Source of the DNA: Escherichia phage vB_EcoS_HZ_ZJUN2
DNA: 64,000 nucleotides
Strand: one strand, 5' to 3'
Sequence record: PP216084
Positions 19,330 to 47,696 of this stretch are shown here, piece after piece. The notes below the pieces were generated by a model that was given only the letters and a program-made list of their open reading frames with translations, did not search any database and was not told the DNA's origin. The translations under genes and the position numbers were made by a program. Each line of letters opens with the position of its first letter. Position 1 is the first letter of the stretch.

Positions 19330-20849
19330 ATATCGCTGGCCTGTTCACCTGTTGAATTTTCAGCTTTGTCTTTCTTAGCACGTTTAGGTTGAGCCGGCTT
19401 ATCCTTCTCAATAGGGATAACGAACTCAGCTTCCATTTGAGATATATCTTCCATTGCTAGGTTGGTAGTGTTATCCATTCGCAGAGTTTCCCAGTTCATT
19501 TTAGGCATAAACTTCACGCTATCAGAAGAACGAGTCTTAACGAAGTCAAACATAATAGCACCTTGACCATTATCAGCTTTTGCAGCATTAAGATTAGCAG
19601 CCATGTCTGCGGAATCAAGAATCCCCTTTGACATACGTGTTCTACCATCTTGATCGATCTGGTAAGGAGCTACACCAGCCACGTTATGTTTCTGGCAGAT
19701 AGATTTGAAAGACGAGCTAACAACCATCTGTTCTTTCCAGTCATACATATCAATGGTTTTAGAGTCTGGAAGTCGGGTTTGGTTAATATAGTCCAGTAAG
19801 GCTACTGTAACTTTATCTCCATATCTAGCAACTAATTTATTTAGTTCTACGTCAACTGTTGTAATAGACAGCTCAGGGTCATAAACAATAATCATAGGAG
19901 TATGTAGTTCATACCCTTCTATTAGCTTACTCTCCATATCGTAGAAATCACTCATCTTAGCCATTGTGTATTGTTTAACGAAGTTATCAAAAAGCTCTTC
20001 ACCACCATTAAACATTCTAGCTCTAGTTCTGGCTAATCTCAACAGAGCTGCACCTTCTAGAGTATTATTACGCATTGCTAGTGCTGATACACCTGCTAAC
20101 ATGGCTAGATTACGTCTAAATACTTCATGTTCTTTCATCTCAATTGAGAAGTATGGAGCAATATCTCCATTCAAATATTGCTGAACCTGTATGTTTGAAC
20201 AGATAATGGATTTACCAGTACCACGCCAACCACCAAGCAGTAACGTTTCTGTGCGAGCTAAACCAATTTGAGCGTCGAACTCATTACAAATACCAAGAGC
20301 GATTAAGTTCAGTTTGGTATCTTCTTCTCTCTGGAAAATACGCATGTTATCTGCGTTGAATACTTTTCCAGTATTCGTTACTTTCTCTTCTAATTTTAAG
20401 TGAAGGGAGGCAACTCGGTTGAGAATTTCTCCCTGATCCAGCATTGTTAAATCTTGAAGCACGTCTGTTTCTAGAAGCTTCAGGAATAGATCCTGCGTAT
20501 ATTCGGCTTCTAGGACTTCAAGTGCCTGTTCCATGCTCACTTCTGGAATTTGAGTGTTAGCTAAGACGACTAGAGCTTGAGAAAGGCGGGCGTTCCTATT
20601 AGCTTCAAGCATAAGTGCGTCAATGGACGGCATTGTGTTATATTTTTTATAATAATTCTGGACGGCTTGGTAAATTGAGGAGAAAGCGTCATTAAAATGA
20701 TCTTTATGCAGTTTTGAGAATGTTTCCAATGCTATTTGCTTCTGTTCTGAAGCAAGAAGCATCTTCAACACTACAGCTTGCACGTTAAACAAGGTCATTC
20801 TCCTTTGCACGCTTTCGTGCCTTCTAAATGCAAAAAGGGGAAGGAGCAT
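19326..20849 (-). CDS. RecA-fold replicative helicase (DnaB-like)
   Basis: 507 aa; Walker A LLGGWRGTGKS. Confidence 0.65.
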   Translation of the reverse strand: MLLPLFAFRRHESVQRRMTLFNVQAVVLKMLLASEQKQIALETFSKLHKDHFNDAFSSIYQAVQNYYKKYNTMPSIDALMLEANRNARLSQALVVLANTQIPEVSMEQALEVLEAEYTQDLFLKLLETDVLQDLTMLDQGEILNRVASLHLKLEEKVTNTGKVFNADNMRIFQREEDTKLNLIALGICNEFDAQIGLARTETLLLGGWRGTGKSIICSNIQVQQYLNGDIAPYFSIEMKEHEVFRRNLAMLAGVSALAMRNNTLEGAALLRLARTRARMFNGGEELFDNFVKQYTMAKMSDFYDMESKLIEGYELHTPMIIVYDPELSITTVDVELNKLVARYGDKVTVALLDYINQTRLPDSKTIDMYDWKEQMVVSSSFKSICQKHNVAGVAPYQIDQDGRTRMSKGILDSADMAANLNAAKADNGQGAIMFDFVKTRSSDSVKFMPKMNWETLRMDNTTNLAMEDISQMEAEFVIPIEKDKPAQPKRAKKDKAENSTGEQASDI

Positions 20850-20863
20850 AGCCCCCTCCCCTT
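20831..20863 (-). terminator. putative intrinsic terminator
   Basis: 7-bp stem AAGGGGA/TCCCCTT with 15-nt loop and a T-run on the minus strand. Confidence 0.4.
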
Positions 20864-20880
20864 AGGTTTAATTTACCAGA

Positions 20881-21648
20881 TTATTCAGCAGCCGCAGCTT
20901 TTGCATCCAGTTTAGCACGCTTAGCGGCACCATCATAGTCCTTAGCAACCAGACCACGACGAGACAGCATAGATTTAACACCACGCTCAGACTTACCAGT
21001 TTTCTCAGCGATCTCAGCAACAGTCATGTTAACCAGATCCAGACCTTCTAACAGATCTTCACGAGTTTTAGCACTTGAAGTTTCCTGTACCGGCATAGCA
21101 GCGATACGACCTTCACGAAGCAGGCTCAGAGCTTTACCACGGATCTGCTTAATATTGCGACCGAAGTGAGCAGCGATAGCTTCAATAGTAGCACCAGCAA
21201 CAACCTGATTAACAAAATCAGTTTCTTCATCCGGAGTGAAGGAACGAACAGCGGCAGCTTTTTCGGTTGGTTTAACAGAAGCGGTCATTTCCAGACTCAG
21301 GATCTTACCCTGTACCTGTTTAGCACCGAACTGACCACCAGCTACAGCAGCAGCGATTTCAGCATAGGTATACTGACCAGCATGAGCGTTCAGGAAATCA
21401 ACCAGCTCAGCTTCCTGCTCAGGAGTCCACGGGGATTTCTGTACTTCGTTAGCTTTCTGTACTTCAAAACCTTCTTTACGCAGTTTAGAGCCAACAGAGC
21501 GAGCAGTAACATCTTTGCCAGTTTCAGCAGCTAGTTCAGCAGCAATAGCAGCTACTTGTTCTTGAGAGATTACAGCAACACCCAGAGCAGTGGCTTTTGC
21601 TTTCAGAGACTCGGTTACACCTTCTACGTTCCAGTTCAGTTTAGACAT
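20881..21648 (-). CDS. DNA-binding protein with three helix-turn-helix-like repeats (D5-like by position)
   Basis: 255 aa, Ala-rich; three repeats of an …EIA…G…KQ.RGK.LS… module. Confidence 0.5.
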   Translation of the reverse strand: MSKLNWNVEGVTESLKAKATALGVAVISQEQVAAIAAELAAETGKDVTARSVGSKLRKEGFEVQKANEVQKSPWTPEQEAELVDFLNAHAGQYTYAEIAAAVAGGQFGAKQVQGKILSLEMTASVKPTEKAAAVRSFTPDEETDFVNQVVAGATIEAIAAHFGRNIKQIRGKALSLLREGRIAAMPVQETSSAKTREDLLEGLDLVNMTVAEIAEKTGKSERGVKSMLSRRGLVAKDYDGAAKRAKLDAKAAAAE

Positions 21649-22423
21649 TATTATTTTTCTCCAATAGTTCTTTAATCGACAGGATTTCTATCCCATTCGT
21701 TTCGGCTTTCTTATAAGATGAGGAAGAACGTTTTGATTCATCCTCACAGATTAGGTATTTGACGTCTTTGGTAACGGATTTCTTAACCGTATACCCTAGA
21801 CCTTCTAAATAGTTTGTTGCATCCGTTCTATTTGCAAAATCTTGCAAAGATCCGGTAATACATACCGCGATTCCATTTGGCTTGGCAACTAATTCATCCG
21901 TAGTGATAATATTAGCTTTAGTGCCCTTAATACCAGTTGAGAATTTCCACGGTAGTTCGATAACATCCTTGCCTTGTGGGGAATTTAGCCAGGCTTTGTA
22001 ATTTTCTCCAGCCTTGCCGTCAGCCTTCACATCATGGAAGCTAGTGCAATTTTGGGATAATTTCTTTGCTGCAACCTCTCCAATTAGAGGGATTCCTAAA
22101 GAACCGAGAACTGAACCAAAGTCAATGTCTCCGCGAACTTTAGTATTTAATTCGCTAATTAACTTAGCGGCAACCTTGCTACCCACGGCTCTAACCAAAT
22201 CTTCTTCGGTTAGGTAAAATAGTTCTGAAATCTTCGTCAGCTCCAGCTTCTCAATAGTTTTTGGGCCAAAGCCCTTTAACTTCATTTTTGAACAGAAGTT
22301 CTCAATTAACTTGCTTGATTGCGCTGGACAGTTGGACTTATTACGACAGAATAATTGTCCGTTGACAAGATCTAGCTTAGAACCACAAGAGGGACATTGT
22401 GTTGGAATTTCGATTTTCATCAA
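21641..22423 (-). CDS. ligB: NAD-dependent DNA ligase, C-terminal subunit (zinc finger/HhH/BRCT part)
   Basis: N-terminal Cys4 pattern CPSCGSKL…CRNKSNC; follows the adenylation-domain ORF. Confidence 0.7.
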   Translation of the reverse strand: MMKIEIPTQCPSCGSKLDLVNGQLFCRNKSNCPAQSSKLIENFCSKMKLKGFGPKTIEKLELTKISELFYLTEEDLVRAVGSKVAAKLISELNTKVRGDIDFGSVLGSLGIPLIGEVAAKKLSQNCTSFHDVKADGKAGENYKAWLNSPQGKDVIELPWKFSTGIKGTKANIITTDELVAKPNGIAVCITGSLQDFANRTDATNYLEGLGYTVKKSVTKDVKYLICEDESKRSSSSYKKAETNGIEILSIKELLEKNNNV

Positions 22424-22450
22424 ATTTCTTCCTTATCAATTTATATAAAT

Positions 22451-22479
22451 ATTATAGCAAGTATTTAAGCATTTAGCAA
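22451..22479 (-). promoter_or_regulatory. T5-type promoter inside the ligase intergenic region (minus strand)
   Basis: Reverse complement TTGCTA - 17 bp - TATAAT followed by ATTTATATAAATT. Confidence 0.6.
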
Positions 22480-22543
22480 CTACAATTTTAATTAACTTTG
22501 CTTACCCTCGCCATAACTTTCTATCCCTCAACTGAATGATAAT

Positions 22544-22572
22544 AGTATATACCTAAGCGGCGAAAATGTCAA
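22544..22572 (-). promoter_or_regulatory. second sigma70 promoter inside the ligase intergenic region (minus strand)
   Basis: Reverse complement TTGACA - 17 bp - TATACT. Confidence 0.5.
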
Positions 22573-22622
22573 TAACCACTTTATAATTCCGATATGGTAG
22601 ATGGGTAGCAAAGGGTTATGTA

Positions 22623-23597
22623 TTAATCGTATACTCGCTCTACTATGCACGGGATTACACCACCAGCACGAATCACTCGAATCTGGCAACCGATCTCTAG
22701 ATCGAGAGAGTTAATATAATCAACGTTATTAAGAGTTGCTTTAACAATTGTAGCATCATCAATAATTACCGGTTCGAAATAACCAACTGGAGTTACTTTA
22801 CCAGAAGCCCCTACCTGCCATTCAACTTTAGTAAGAGTTGTAATCTCGCCTTCTTCATCCTCTTTAATGGCGAAGGCTCCACGAGGGAATTTATTAGTCC
22901 AGCCTTCACGGAAGAATTTGTTGTTGTCATTAATACGAACAACTTTACCGTCCGTCGGAATCCATTTAAAGAAGGAACGCACATTAACAACTGTTAAGAA
23001 GTTCTCATTCTCTAGCCAAAGCATATCTTTTAAGTATGCTTCTGTAATACCTACAGATTCAGCAGAACATTGGATACCATAAGCAACAAAGATTAAACCG
23101 CCTTCTCCAATGCGTTGTACGAAAGCATCACTATCTTTGAGGTTAATAGCACCAGAGGCAAAGTTACGTTTATTTTCTACTTCTTTTGTAATTAGAACTT
23201 CACCAGTGATTTGAGTAGGTACTTTTTGGGAAATCTTTTTAGGAATATTCAGCAATCTTACGTTGCTTGTGACATCATTCCCCAGAATACCATTACCACG
23301 AGTTAATGCTTGAACAAATTCACCGTTAATATATAATAGAGAAATTGCACAACCATCTAACTTATCAGTTTCTACCTGACCTAAAGGATTAAATGGTGGT
23401 TTATCCCCACGATTATAATAAACTTTCTGTAAAGAATACATACGGTACAGATGTGGAATATCTCCCTTAGGCCCGATCTCTTCTTCTAGTGGGAAGCGTT
23501 TTACCAGGCAATCATACTCCTCATCAGAGATTAAAGACATGCCTTGATAATATGCTTCTTGACAACGCTTAATAAAGCCTCTTACATTATTCATCAT
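22623..23597 (-). CDS. ligA: NAD-dependent DNA ligase, N-terminal adenylation subunit
   Basis: 324 aa; adenylation lysine motif KLDG (…ETDKLDGCAISLLY…). Confidence 0.8.
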   Translation of the reverse strand: MMNNVRGFIKRCQEAYYQGMSLISDEEYDCLVKRFPLEEEIGPKGDIPHLYRMYSLQKVYYNRGDKPPFNPLGQVETDKLDGCAISLLYINGEFVQALTRGNGILGNDVTSNVRLLNIPKKISQKVPTQITGEVLITKEVENKRNFASGAINLKDSDAFVQRIGEGGLIFVAYGIQCSAESVGITEAYLKDMLWLENENFLTVVNVRSFFKWIPTDGKVVRINDNNKFFREGWTNKFPRGAFAIKEDEEGEITTLTKVEWQVGASGKVTPVGYFEPVIIDDATIVKATLNNVDYINSLDLEIGCQIRVIRAGGVIPCIVERVYD

Positions 23598-23787
23598 CGG
23601 CGATTTCCATCTTGAGTTCTTTATTATATTGTGTAACCATGTCCATCAAATCAGCAGATTCTTTCAGAAACGCATCTTTGTACACCTTTTGATTTACTGT
23701 GCCTATGCTATCTTGATAATTAATACGTGCTGTGGAAAGTAGATTAAGTTTTGCTTGAATCTTGGGAAGTGTTACTGTCATTGCCAT
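23587..23787 (-). CDS. hypothetical protein
   Basis: 66-aa ORF. Confidence 0.4.
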   Translation of the reverse strand: MAMTVTLPKIQAKLNLLSTARINYQDSIGTVNQKVYKDAFLKESADLMDMVTQYNKELKMEIADDE

Positions 23788-24060
23788 TCACCGTACCTCA
23801 TATGCTTTAGGCTGTCTAGTGGATCCGTGCCATGTATAATTTTTGCAAAGATGCAAATATGTAGTTTTTACTAGCCTATCCGATAATGGAGAGTATATTT
23901 CAGCTATTAATACTTCTTTTTCGTAATAAAGTGAAATCAGTTTATACCCAGTTCTAGTTTTAGTATACTTTTCCCCATTAATCTTTTCCTCCCACATGAG
24001 TATGAGAGGCTGTCCGATATATGGAAAAGGTTTAAGTGTACTTATATTTATCTTTTTCAC
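23788..24060 (-). CDS. hypothetical protein
   Basis: 90-aa ORF downstream of the promoter at 24091-24119. Confidence 0.45.
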   Translation of the reverse strand: MKKINISTLKPFPYIGQPLILMWEEKINGEKYTKTRTGYKLISLYYEKEVLIAEIYSPLSDRLVKTTYLHLCKNYTWHGSTRQPKAYEVR

Positions 24061-24090
24061 TTTGCAACCCTCTCATTAATTTATATAAAT

Positions 24091-24119
24091 ATTATATAAC
24101 AAAACTGAGTTGAAAGCAA
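24091..24119 (-). promoter_or_regulatory. T5-type promoter (minus strand)
   Basis: Reverse complement TTGCTT - 17 bp - TATAAT followed by ATTTATATAAATTAATGAGAG. Confidence 0.6.
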
Positions 24120-24125
24120 ATACAT

Positions 24126-24437
24126 TTATTCTTTTTCCGCCAGGCGTTTAGCTTCTTTTTCTACTTCTAATAAAACCTCACTATTAGATAATATTTTAGT
24201 AAATGCCTTAAATAAATGAGATGTTGTTTCTAGAGTGTATGGCATACTGAATCCACTTTTTGTTGGAAACCATTCACCTTCTATATCTTGGAGCCAGTAC
24301 CTAATTCCTAAGTATAGATTCCCCCTAAACTCAGATACAGTTAGCCTAACCTGTTGGCCATCTTCTCTCTCCCAGATAACTATGGACTGATCATCTACAT
24401 GTCCAACATAATCCTGATTTACATTATCTCCTGACAT
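24126..24437 (-). CDS. hypothetical protein
   Basis: 103-aa ORF. Confidence 0.45.
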   Translation of the reverse strand: MSGDNVNQDYVGHVDDQSIVIWEREDGQQVRLTVSEFRGNLYLGIRYWLQDIEGEWFPTKSGFSMPYTLETTSHLFKAFTKILSNSEVLLEVEKEAKRLAEKE

Positions 24438-25084
24438 TTTATTGCTCCCTGACTTAGGAGATATTCCTCTGCCTCCTCTGGTTGAATACTGAAAAACTCA
24501 GTAGAACCGTCAAATATTGACTCTGTAAATATCTGCATACTAGAAAAGAATTGATGGGCTTTATTTTCTAGGGTATATGCAGAGCCTTCATAAGAGTATA
24601 CCCCATATATACTCAGATCCACCAAATTAGAATCTTTTTTAATCTCTTGAAGTCTTCTATCTGGGTTTTTAGATGTTCCTATTTTTGTTCCTAGCTGCGG
24701 GCTATAAAATAGATACAAATAGCTTGTAGCCGCACAGATAGGGCAAGATCTTCTAGCATTTTTAATCTTATCCACGCTGCTAACCCATCTATGTCCTTCT
24801 ACACACTCGAACTCTGCTTGACTACGGGAATTAATATAGGGAGATATAAGTTTTATACCCCTACTGGCTAGCTGTTGGTTTATTTGCTCTACAGTAAGCT
24901 TAGCTTTATTACTACAATGTGGGCAACCACTACCCTTTCTTATATTATTTAGGTAAGCTTTCCATTGGTGGCCCTTTAAGCATTTAAACATGGCTGGTGT
25001 TCTTATGTTAACCCATTCACTTACTATACTAAAGCCTCGTGACTCTAATTCTTTATTTATTTGTTTTGCTGTTAACTTTTTCAC
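24419..25084 (-). CDS. homing-endonuclease-like protein: two zinc-ribbon repeats plus GIY-YIG-superfamily (T5orf172-type) domain
   Basis: Repeats C..GH.W…G.GCP.C; YLYLFYSPQLGTKIGTSKNPDRRLQEI nuclease-like motif; paralogue of 35561-36424. Confidence 0.6.
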   Translation of the reverse strand: MKKLTAKQINKELESRGFSIVSEWVNIRTPAMFKCLKGHQWKAYLNNIRKGSGCPHCSNKAKLTVEQINQQLASRGIKLISPYINSRSQAEFECVEGHRWVSSVDKIKNARRSCPICAATSYLYLFYSPQLGTKIGTSKNPDRRLQEIKKDSNLVDLSIYGVYSYEGSAYTLENKAHQFFSSMQIFTESIFDGSTEFFSIQPEEAEEYLLSQGAIKCQEIM

Positions 25085-47667: not shown

Positions 47668-47696
47668 TTGCTAATCTACTAAATTATATGTATAAT
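47668..47696 (+). promoter_or_regulatory. T5-type promoter
   Basis: TTGCTA - 17 bp - TATAAT followed by ATATTTTTAAATTGATGAAAC. Confidence 0.65.

Follow-up and report, generated by a model that had tools for sequence, protein, structure and literature searches.

The T5-type two-gene NAD-dependent DNA ligase of Escherichia phage vB_EcoS_HZ_ZJUN2 and the promoters between its genes

Why do two neighboring genes encode an NAD-dependent DNA ligase, and what lies in the short stretch that separates them? The question is raised by a locus in Escherichia phage vB_EcoS_HZ_ZJUN2 (PP216084), of which a stretch of 64,000 nucleotides, here called the window, was analyzed. The original prediction, made from the sequence, had the adenylation half with its KLDG motif and the half carrying zinc finger, HhH and BRCT as separate open reading frames 199 bp apart, a division confirmed here. 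We assign the locus, with a probability of about 0.93, to the genes ligA and ligB of the T5-type heterodimeric NAD-dependent DNA ligase, which is typical of T5-like phages (Demerecviridae). Supporting this are the 98% (LigA) and 96% (LigB) protein identity to the T5 counterparts, the identity of 201 of the 202 gap positions with T5, the T5 annotation itself, a solved heterodimer and the conservation of the promoters described below. The source phage is T5-like, and the gene order PC4-like gene, ligA, ligB, D5, D6 helicase is present in the window, as it is in uncultivated relatives. The overall arrangement is already known: descriptions of the two-gene ligase of T5 go back to 2005, hundreds of genomes carry its annotation, and the prediction is correct but not new, the locus being ordinary for a relative of T5.

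The gene for the catalytic subunit, ligA (22623..23597, minus strand), encodes 324 residues that comprise a putative short domain Ia, an adenylation domain (Pfam PF01653, E 1.4e-23) and, following it, an OB fold (PF03120, E 3.3e-22, residues 253-322). The KLDG motif occupies residues 79-82, with K79 aligned to K115 of E. coli LigA; in motif V, R220 stands in place of the E. coli K290, and an arginine is found there in the ligase of Providencia phage vB_PreS_PR1 too. An AYYqg..iSDeEYD motif, conserved in the PR1 chain, is visible at residues 15-29 in the region of domain Ia, the N-terminal domain that gives the LigA family its NAD+ specificity; similarity to the Ia segment of T. filiformis does not reach significance (domain score -0.4). 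The protein as a whole matches chain A of the PR1 structure (PDB 9HU3) with E 1.3e-102.

The gene for the DNA-binding subunit, ligB (21641..22420, minus strand), encodes 259 residues from an ATG preceded at 7 nt by a Shine-Dalgarno sequence read from the sequence as AAGGAAG (22428..22434, minus strand); a longer reading (21641-22423, minus strand) gives 260 residues from a TTG, and T5 uses the ATG at 22420. The zinc finger follows the pattern CxxC...C-x5-C (C9, C12, C25 and C31), all four cysteines being invariant in 61 stand-alone homologues, and C9 and C12 align with C408 and C411 of E. coli LigA. The BRCT domain is recognized by Pfam with E 8.8e-8 (32.7 bits, the cut-off being 21.3), and the HhH region matches HHH_2 with E 3e-5, which is under the Pfam cut-off. 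LigB matches chain B of 9HU3 with E 2e-80; its AF2 model (pLDDT 91) has that chain as its top fold match in the PDB, and the fold also matches 2OWO.

Residue 321 of LigA aligns with residue 390 of E. coli LigA, and residue 3 of LigB with residue 402. By alignment, the break falls in the linker between OB fold and zinc finger, at E. coli residues 393-401, and all domains appear to be retained. The pair departs from the single polypeptide of the LigA family in having a stop codon after the OB fold, stop codons in all three frames of the gap, and a separate Shine-Dalgarno sequence and ATG.

How two such chains could work as one enzyme is suggested by the PR1 ligase: the entry 9HU3, released in 2026, contains two chains and is titled [quoted passage not shown] Our literature search found no paper on 9HU3 or 9I5I, nor on the biochemistry of the T5 heterodimer. 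A truncated ligase of composition Ia-NTase-OB self-adenylates, and gives no ligation without the Zn-HhH-BRCT region (PMC1684257). From the title of the entry and the behavior of the truncated enzyme we infer that the two subunits associate and seal nicks jointly. LigA (Ia-NTase-OB) would be responsible for catalysis and, by reaction with NAD+, for making the enzyme-AMP intermediate, LigB (Zn-HhH-BRCT) would provide the DNA-binding part of the clamp, and the two would assemble non-covalently on nicked DNA to do the job of the single-chain bacterial LigA.

The gap between the genes (22421..22622, minus strand; 31% GC) measures 202 bp to the ATG of ligB and 199 bp to the TTG. Both minus-strand promoters predicted in it are exact as quoted, and both match features of the T5 RefSeq record, "promoter P-K 28b" and "P-K 28a", each of which begins 20 nt upstream of the respective -35 hexamer. 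PK28b (22544..22572, minus strand) has the -35 hexamer TTGACA (22572-22567), a 17-nt spacer and the -10 hexamer TATACT (22549-22544), agreeing with consensus at 11 of 12 positions; PK28a (22451..22479, minus strand; 10 of 12) has TTGCTA (22479-22474), again a 17-nt spacer, and an extended -10, TGcTATAAT (22459-22451), in which the TG lies one base upstream of the hexamer. A sigma70-like scan of the minus strand from 20500 to 25000 matched these two sites only. Of 5000 shuffles of the gap that preserved its dinucleotides, 0.4% contained two sites of at least 10/12, and in 0.9% the best site scored 11/12 or more. Their designation as promoters follows the feature names in the T5 record, and they are presumably active in this phage also, as the conservation of their hexamers and the repeated occurrence of the PK28a sequence, both described below, support; that T5 names both of them in the gap suggests that ligB can be transcribed apart from ligA, as had been proposed. 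The supplement of PMC7472727 holds no PK28 sequences, the ligase goes unmentioned in the BF23 paper, and a literature search found no papers mapping T5 transcription starts.

The 21-mer formed by the -10 and initially transcribed region of PK28a occurs in 9 copies in the window, against 0.03 expected, and this promoter has the ATATT discriminator of the early class; the -10 and leader of PK28b have no second copy in the window, and PK28b is without the discriminator in most genera. The leader of PK28b also contains an SD-like GAGGGA followed by an 8-codon reading frame, MARVSKVN (22488..22514, minus strand; read from the sequence), which is not conserved in Klebsiella or River4 phages and is probably not a gene.

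Downstream of ligB lies the gene for the D5 DNA-binding/transcription factor (20881..21648, minus strand; named from the T5 annotation, 97% DNA identity to T5). The start of D5 and the stop of ligB share 8 nt (ATGTCTAA); given this overlap, D5 is probably co-transcribed with ligB. A hairpin resembling an intrinsic terminator, 13 pairs followed by a T run, is found after D5 (20835..20863, minus strand). PK28b and PK28a would thus start a ligB-D5 unit that probably extends to this terminator. The unit containing ligA is headed by an early promoter, TTGCTT-17-TATAAT (24091..24119, minus strand), identical in sequence to the T5 promoter adjoining ligA, and two small open reading frames of 90 and 66 residues lie between it and ligA. 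No terminator was found after ligA, so read-through from upstream probably contributes to the expression of ligB and D5.

Conservation of the gap was followed across the T5-like phages. The gap is more conserved than the genes on either side are at their third codon positions, both against T5 (99.5% versus 89-93%) and against a Klebsiella phage (71% versus 44-47%). Among 12 cultured phages of at least nine genera the hexamers keep both their sequence and their distance from the ligB ATG, and the spacers vary: TTGAC and TATA.T of PK28b are invariant, about 152 nt before the ATG, and for PK28a it is TTGC and TG.TATAAT that the genera have in common, at about 58 nt from the ATG. All 19 of the distinct uncultivated T5-like loci have a split ligase and a promoter of 11-12/12 upstream of ligB. 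Taking these 19 together with about 45 cultured phages sampled across many genera, every T5-like locus examined has both the split and a near-consensus promoter directly upstream of ligB. This last point, which extends to about 35-40% protein identity, is a slight addition to what has been published. The break holds a stop codon, strong sigma70 promoters, of which there are one or two (PK28b and PK28a in this phage), and a Shine-Dalgarno sequence with an ATG. The comparative result raises the question of whether the ligase was split because the promoter of ligB-D5 needed that place, which is of modest evolutionary interest and not a new type of system.

One explanation for the persistence of the split is that it uncouples expression, LigB (and D5) being made from the promoter or promoters in the break in excess of LigA or at another time; we regard this as rather unlikely, but if it is true, free LigB could have a separate role, such as to bind or mark the site-specific nicks of T5-type genomes. 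Still less probable, in our judgment, is that the break was opened by a mobile element, for example a free-standing homing endonuclease gene, that has since been lost, the promoters being leftovers and not the cause of the split. The junction between the ligA stop and PK28b does carry different small reading frames in different genera (in bastian, Proteus phage 2, PG07, JSF10, River4 and the uncultivated loci L017 and L026); T5-like genomes are, moreover, rich in HNH and GIY-YIG-type genes (in the window, 24419-25084). Against such an origin, a Pfam scan of six inserted reading frames (from JSF10, Proteus phage 2, River4 and bastian) gave no match to a nuclease family. The inserts are invariably located upstream of the promoter module, and the module remains with ligB at a fixed distance; the shortest gaps, of 60-80 nt, hold one consensus promoter and nothing else. 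What Pfam did return was a sub-threshold DprA-like match in River4.

A recent disruption of a contiguous gene, through nonsense mutation, deletion or assembly error, with the halves decaying as pseudogenes, was the outcome that would have undone the original prediction. Contiguous ligases of 555-578 residues with about 37% identity do exist in metagenomes, and the ancestral state was therefore probably fused; a contiguous gene is, however, found in no close relative, T5 included. The same arrangement is shared, over at least 80% of the query, by 429 phage records, and the split is present in all sampled Demerecviridae as well as in all of the uncultivated syntenic loci. In both genes identity at codon positions 1 and 2 is far above that at position 3, the catalytic K79 is present, the zinc cysteines are invariant among the homologues, and a homologous pair has been solved as a complex on DNA. 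The comparative data refute the reading as pseudogene or artifact, to which we give practically no weight. Adjacent "partial" ligase reading frames in a T5-like phage should accordingly be annotated as the normal functional state and not as a frameshift or pseudogene.

Group I introns interrupt some phage genes, and gene 60 of phage T4 uses translational bypass. That an intron, intein, bypass or recoding event joins the two reading frames here is nonetheless exceedingly improbable: 22300-22750 has no Rfam match at E <= 1, the gap RNA folds no better than its shuffles (z = -1.16), all three frames are stopped over 199 nt, ligB has its own Shine-Dalgarno sequence and ATG, residue 1 of 9HU3 chain B aligns with residue 1 of LigB (MKIQIPTHCP...), and the gaps of relatives, which can be as short as about 60 nt or as long as about 1360 nt, in some cases hold unrelated reading frames. 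A repeat search in the gap returned just two weak inverted repeats. The claim that the gap is not a group I intron thus holds, and no self-splicing element is recognized.

The closest known system is that of T5 itself (NC_005859, 65364-67317), in which ligA is T5.116 and ligB is T5.117. Both genes are shared with the window, as are the 202-bp gap (with one mismatch), the two promoters in equal positions and the D5 and D6 genes downstream; unlike in the window, the early promoter directly adjoins ligA in T5, with neither of the two small reading frames in between. The chains of the PR1 ligase (PDB 9HU3 and 9I5I) correspond one-to-one to LigA and LigB, with 53% and 55% identity, and the PR1 locus has an equal break point and the same tandem promoter layout, but its gap is 192 bp and its spacer sequences are different.

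Among single-chain enzymes, E. coli LigA (PDB 2OWO) has the same domain order, Ia-NTase-OB-Zn-HhH-BRCT, and its catalytic lysine and first two zinc cysteines align with those of the phage pair; the chemistry of the reaction is presumed to be equal. E. coli LigA is, in contrast, one chain of 671 residues, as opposed to 324 and 259; the NTase region of the phage protein is about 65 residues shorter than that of bacterial LigA, and the gene break takes the place of about eight residues of the linker. The compact contiguous ligases from metagenomes (for example P0032) resemble the phage pair in size, are about 37% identical to LigB and have a C-terminal BRCT tail very like that of LigB (...NYLICEDD..SSSYKKAQTNGI...), but they are unsplit, with a linker of 19-33 residues between OB fold and zinc finger. 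Scans of viral and metagenome contigs for the genomic context of P0032 returned only split T5-like loci, with 36-43% identity where the match covers the two halves of the ligase, and contiguous ligases that are unrelated, with at most 29% identity.

Split genes for phage enzymes are known from the topoisomerase genes 39 and 60 of T4 and from the DNA polymerase and nrdA of Aeromonas phage Aeh1, where adjacent genes encode an enzyme that is single-chain elsewhere and the products reassemble. Homing endonuclease genes are associated with those cases, whereas the ligase break of the window contains promoters, with no nuclease gene found in it.

The NAD-dependent DNA ligase of the window is encoded by two genes. 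The first, ligA (22623-23597, minus strand), specifies 324 aa with Pfam matches to the NAD-ligase adenylation (E = 1.4e-23) and OB (E = 3.3e-22) domains and KLDG at residues 79-82; the second, ligB (ORF 21641-22423, minus strand), matches BRCT (E = 8.8e-8) and, weakly, HhH, and its product starts with a zinc finger (CxxC...C-x5-C). The mechanically called ligB ORF opens with TTG, and the ATG used by T5 is the next codon, with a Shine-Dalgarno sequence (AAGGAAG) 7 nt before it; the gap between the genes is 199 bp (TTG start) or 202 bp (ATG start), with 31% GC and stops in every frame. The original prediction of two separate ORFs about 199 bp apart is borne out by the ORF table and the sequence, and a consensus scan found both of its minus-strand promoter-like sites exactly as given: TTGACA-17-TATACT (22572..22544; 11/12), named PK28b in T5, and TTGCTA-17-TATAAT (22479..22451; 10/12, with a TG extension), named PK28a and nearer to ligB. 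These are the sole minus-strand matches in 20500-25000, and two sites at or above 10/12 arose in 0.4% of 5000 dinucleotide shuffles of the gap.

The question of whether close relatives carry a contiguous ligase was addressed by tblastn across the junction: every sampled Demerecviridae record has two pieces, down to ~52% identity, and single-piece matches begin only at ≤37% identity, in unrelated phages. Among the best 150 LigB relatives, drawn from a library clustered at 50% identity, ~100 are stand-alone proteins (235-265 aa) and about ten are compact contiguous ligases (555-578 aa, ~37% identity). Scans seeded with one contiguous metagenomic protein, P0032, gave uncultivated loci in T5 gene order (PC4-like gene, ligA, ligB, D5, D6); the ligase is split in all 19 distinct loci, each with an 11-12/12 promoter immediately upstream of ligB. 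The six contiguous genes recovered by these scans have ≤28% identity and lack T5 synteny; the genomic context of P0032 itself was sought there and not recovered.

Gap length varies considerably. There are no inserted ORFs in My1 (170 bp as annotated), Akh-2 (182 bp), PR1 (192 bp), or T5 and the Klebsiella phages (199-202 bp); one is found in Proteus phage 2 (344 bp; 55 aa) and bastian (358 bp; 64 aa), two in D308 (443 bp), PG07 (~680 bp; 809 as annotated) and JSF10 (922 bp), and three in River4 (1359 bp), one of them with a sub-threshold DprA-like match. All inserts follow the ligA stop and precede the PK28b-like promoter; at this junction, a hot spot, different T5-like genera carry unrelated small ORFs without known function (junction coordinates: L004 2149-2316; L005 1580-2412; L006 2159-3362; L007 1883-2329; L008 1496-1690; L012 1797-2257; L017 1031-1674; L026 5914-6924). 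A hot spot of this kind would fit an origin of the break as the scar of a mobile element; however, Pfam scans of six inserted ORFs (from JSF10, Proteus phage 2, River4 and bastian) gave no nuclease domain and minimal gaps contain a promoter only, and we give this account of the origin a low probability. In several uncultivated loci the promoter is the whole content of a ~60-80 nt gap (contigs L013, L018, L020, L021, L031, L033), being a single perfect or near-perfect TTGACA-17-TATAAT with an A tract ahead, apparently the split in its minimal form.

The break was mapped by HMMER alignments of the window proteins to E. coli LigA (PDB 2OWO). LigA K79 aligns with K115 and LigA 215-321 with 284-390; residue 3 of LigB aligns with 402, C9/C12 with C408/C411, and LigB 165-253 with the BRCT region (582-666). 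Given where these alignments end, the break stands in for ~8 residues of the linker from OB domain to zinc finger, with all domains present, and the four zinc cysteines of LigB are invariant in 61 stand-alone homologues. Motif V of LigA reads DGKVVR, with Arg at residue 220 versus K290 in E. coli. AlphaFold models LigB with high confidence (pLDDT 91.3), and the best PDB match of the model is chain B of 9hu3 (released 2026-01-14), entitled [quoted passage not shown]; by sequence, LigA matches chain A (E = 1.3e-102) and LigB chain B (E = 2e-80). From the title and the chain matches, there is thus a solved structure of a homologous two-chain enzyme bound to its substrate. The division of labour has an analogy in another NAD ligase, whose Ia-NTase-OB fragment showed normal self-adenylation, and no ligation without the Zn-HhH-BRCT region (PMC1684257). 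Joining of the two ORFs by an intron, intein or bypass is excluded, as had been proposed for a group I intron, by the Rfam (no match at E ≤ 1) and folding (z = -1.16) results for the gap, its stops in all frames, the independent translation signals of ligB and the alignment of residue 1 of 9hu3 chain B with residue 1 of LigB. A pseudogene or artefact is likewise excluded, since both genes are conserved and under purifying selection and the complex has been solved.

The region upstream of ligB was compared in 12 cultured phages: the window, T5, Salmonella phage bastian, Klebsiella, Pectobacterium, Providencia, Proteus and Aeromonas phages, and four Vibrio phage genera. The comparison shows two conserved modules, TTGAC(A/G)-17-TATA(A/C)T ~152 nt and TTGC..-17-TATAAT with a TG extension ~58 nt before the ligB ATG; the hexamers of both are invariant or nearly so, and the spacers vary freely. 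Conservation of the gap exceeds that of synonymous sites in the flanking genes: it is 99.5% identical to that of T5 (third codon positions, 89-93%) and 71% identical to that of a Klebsiella phage (44-47%). Judged by sequence comparison, the gap promoters are under selection. The 21-nt PK28a stretch of -10 and initially transcribed sequence, TATAATATTTATATAAATTGA, occurs in nine copies with ≤3 mismatches in the window (0.03 expected), at 22436-22456 and 24076-24096 on the minus strand and at 47691, 53739, 54892, 56960, 59533, 61411 and 63536 on the plus strand; one copy is the promoter heading the ligA unit, and the copies look like a family of early promoters. With minus-strand copies near 22-24 kb and plus-strand copies from 47 kb on, the direction of transcription would switch somewhere between. 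The stretch contains the ATATT discriminator reported for T5 early promoters (Klimuk et al., PMC7472727), which PK28b lacks in most genera; a search of the window for a second copy of the PK28b -10/leader found none. The PK28b -10 is followed after ~15 nt by a GAGGGA resembling a Shine-Dalgarno sequence and by a mini-ORF of eight codons (MARVSKVN; 22488-22530, minus strand); the G-rich leader motif recurs in other genera, the mini-ORF does not.

We propose that ligA would be transcribed in a unit from the early promoter at 24119-24091 (minus strand), with PK28b and PK28a adding initiation for ligB; transcription of ligB independently of ligA, as predicted, is upheld insofar as the gap sites match promoters annotated in T5. 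A site scan found no terminator-like site after ligA, ligB and D5 overlap at stop and start (ATGTCTAA), and D5 is followed by a strong hairpin with a T run (20863-20835, minus strand). LigA and LigB would be translated separately and assemble on nicked DNA, LigA providing NAD+-dependent adenylation and catalysis and LigB the remainder of the clamp. A strong promoter at the break plausibly serves high ligB-D5 expression. D5 (20881-21648, minus strand), annotated in T5 as a DNA-binding protein required for replication and late transcription, has weak Pfam matches to helix-turn-helix domains of the sigma70 region 4 type (best E = 1.1e-6, residues 204-230), which fits the annotated transcription factor role.

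Two small ORFs without Pfam matches, of 90 aa (23788-24060) and 66 aa (23587-23787, overlapping the ligA start), both on the minus strand, separate the early promoter from ligA; in T5 and BF23, where both ORFs are absent, this promoter lies directly next to ligA. Farther upstream, a 221-aa ORF (24419-25084, minus strand), the end of which overlaps the PC4-like gene (24126-24437) at its start, matches T5orf172/MUG113 (GIY-YIG-like) and the DUF4379 treble-clef zinc finger, and looks like a homing-endonuclease-type gene.

With a 2.4-kb query, megablast matched 446 phage records, 429 of them in one alignment spanning ≥80% of the query, gap included; coverage was 99% or 91% among the matches because T5 and BF23 lack the 90-aa and 66-aa ORFs. 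The original observation and its interpretation are both right, and the split ligase with its promoters is already known, being annotated in T5 and hundreds of relatives, mentioned in publications of 2005-2006 and solved structurally in a homologue. The modest addition here is a promoter inside the ligase break in every T5-like locus examined, uncultivated relatives included. Comparison with T5 gives the same split, with 98% (LigA) and 96% (LigB) protein identity and one base different in the gap; its RefSeq order is ligA (T5.116), "promoter P-K 28b", "promoter P-K 28a", ligB (T5.117) and D5, as separate genes, each promoter feature starting 20 nt ahead of the -35 hexamer identified in the window, and the split and both promoters are therefore already named T5 features. 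The solved enzyme is more distant: 9hu3 chain B is 100% identical to a protein of the T5-like Providencia phage vB_PreS_PR1, whose pair shares 53% (LigA) and 55% (LigB) identity with that of the window and, like it, has Arg at the motif V position.
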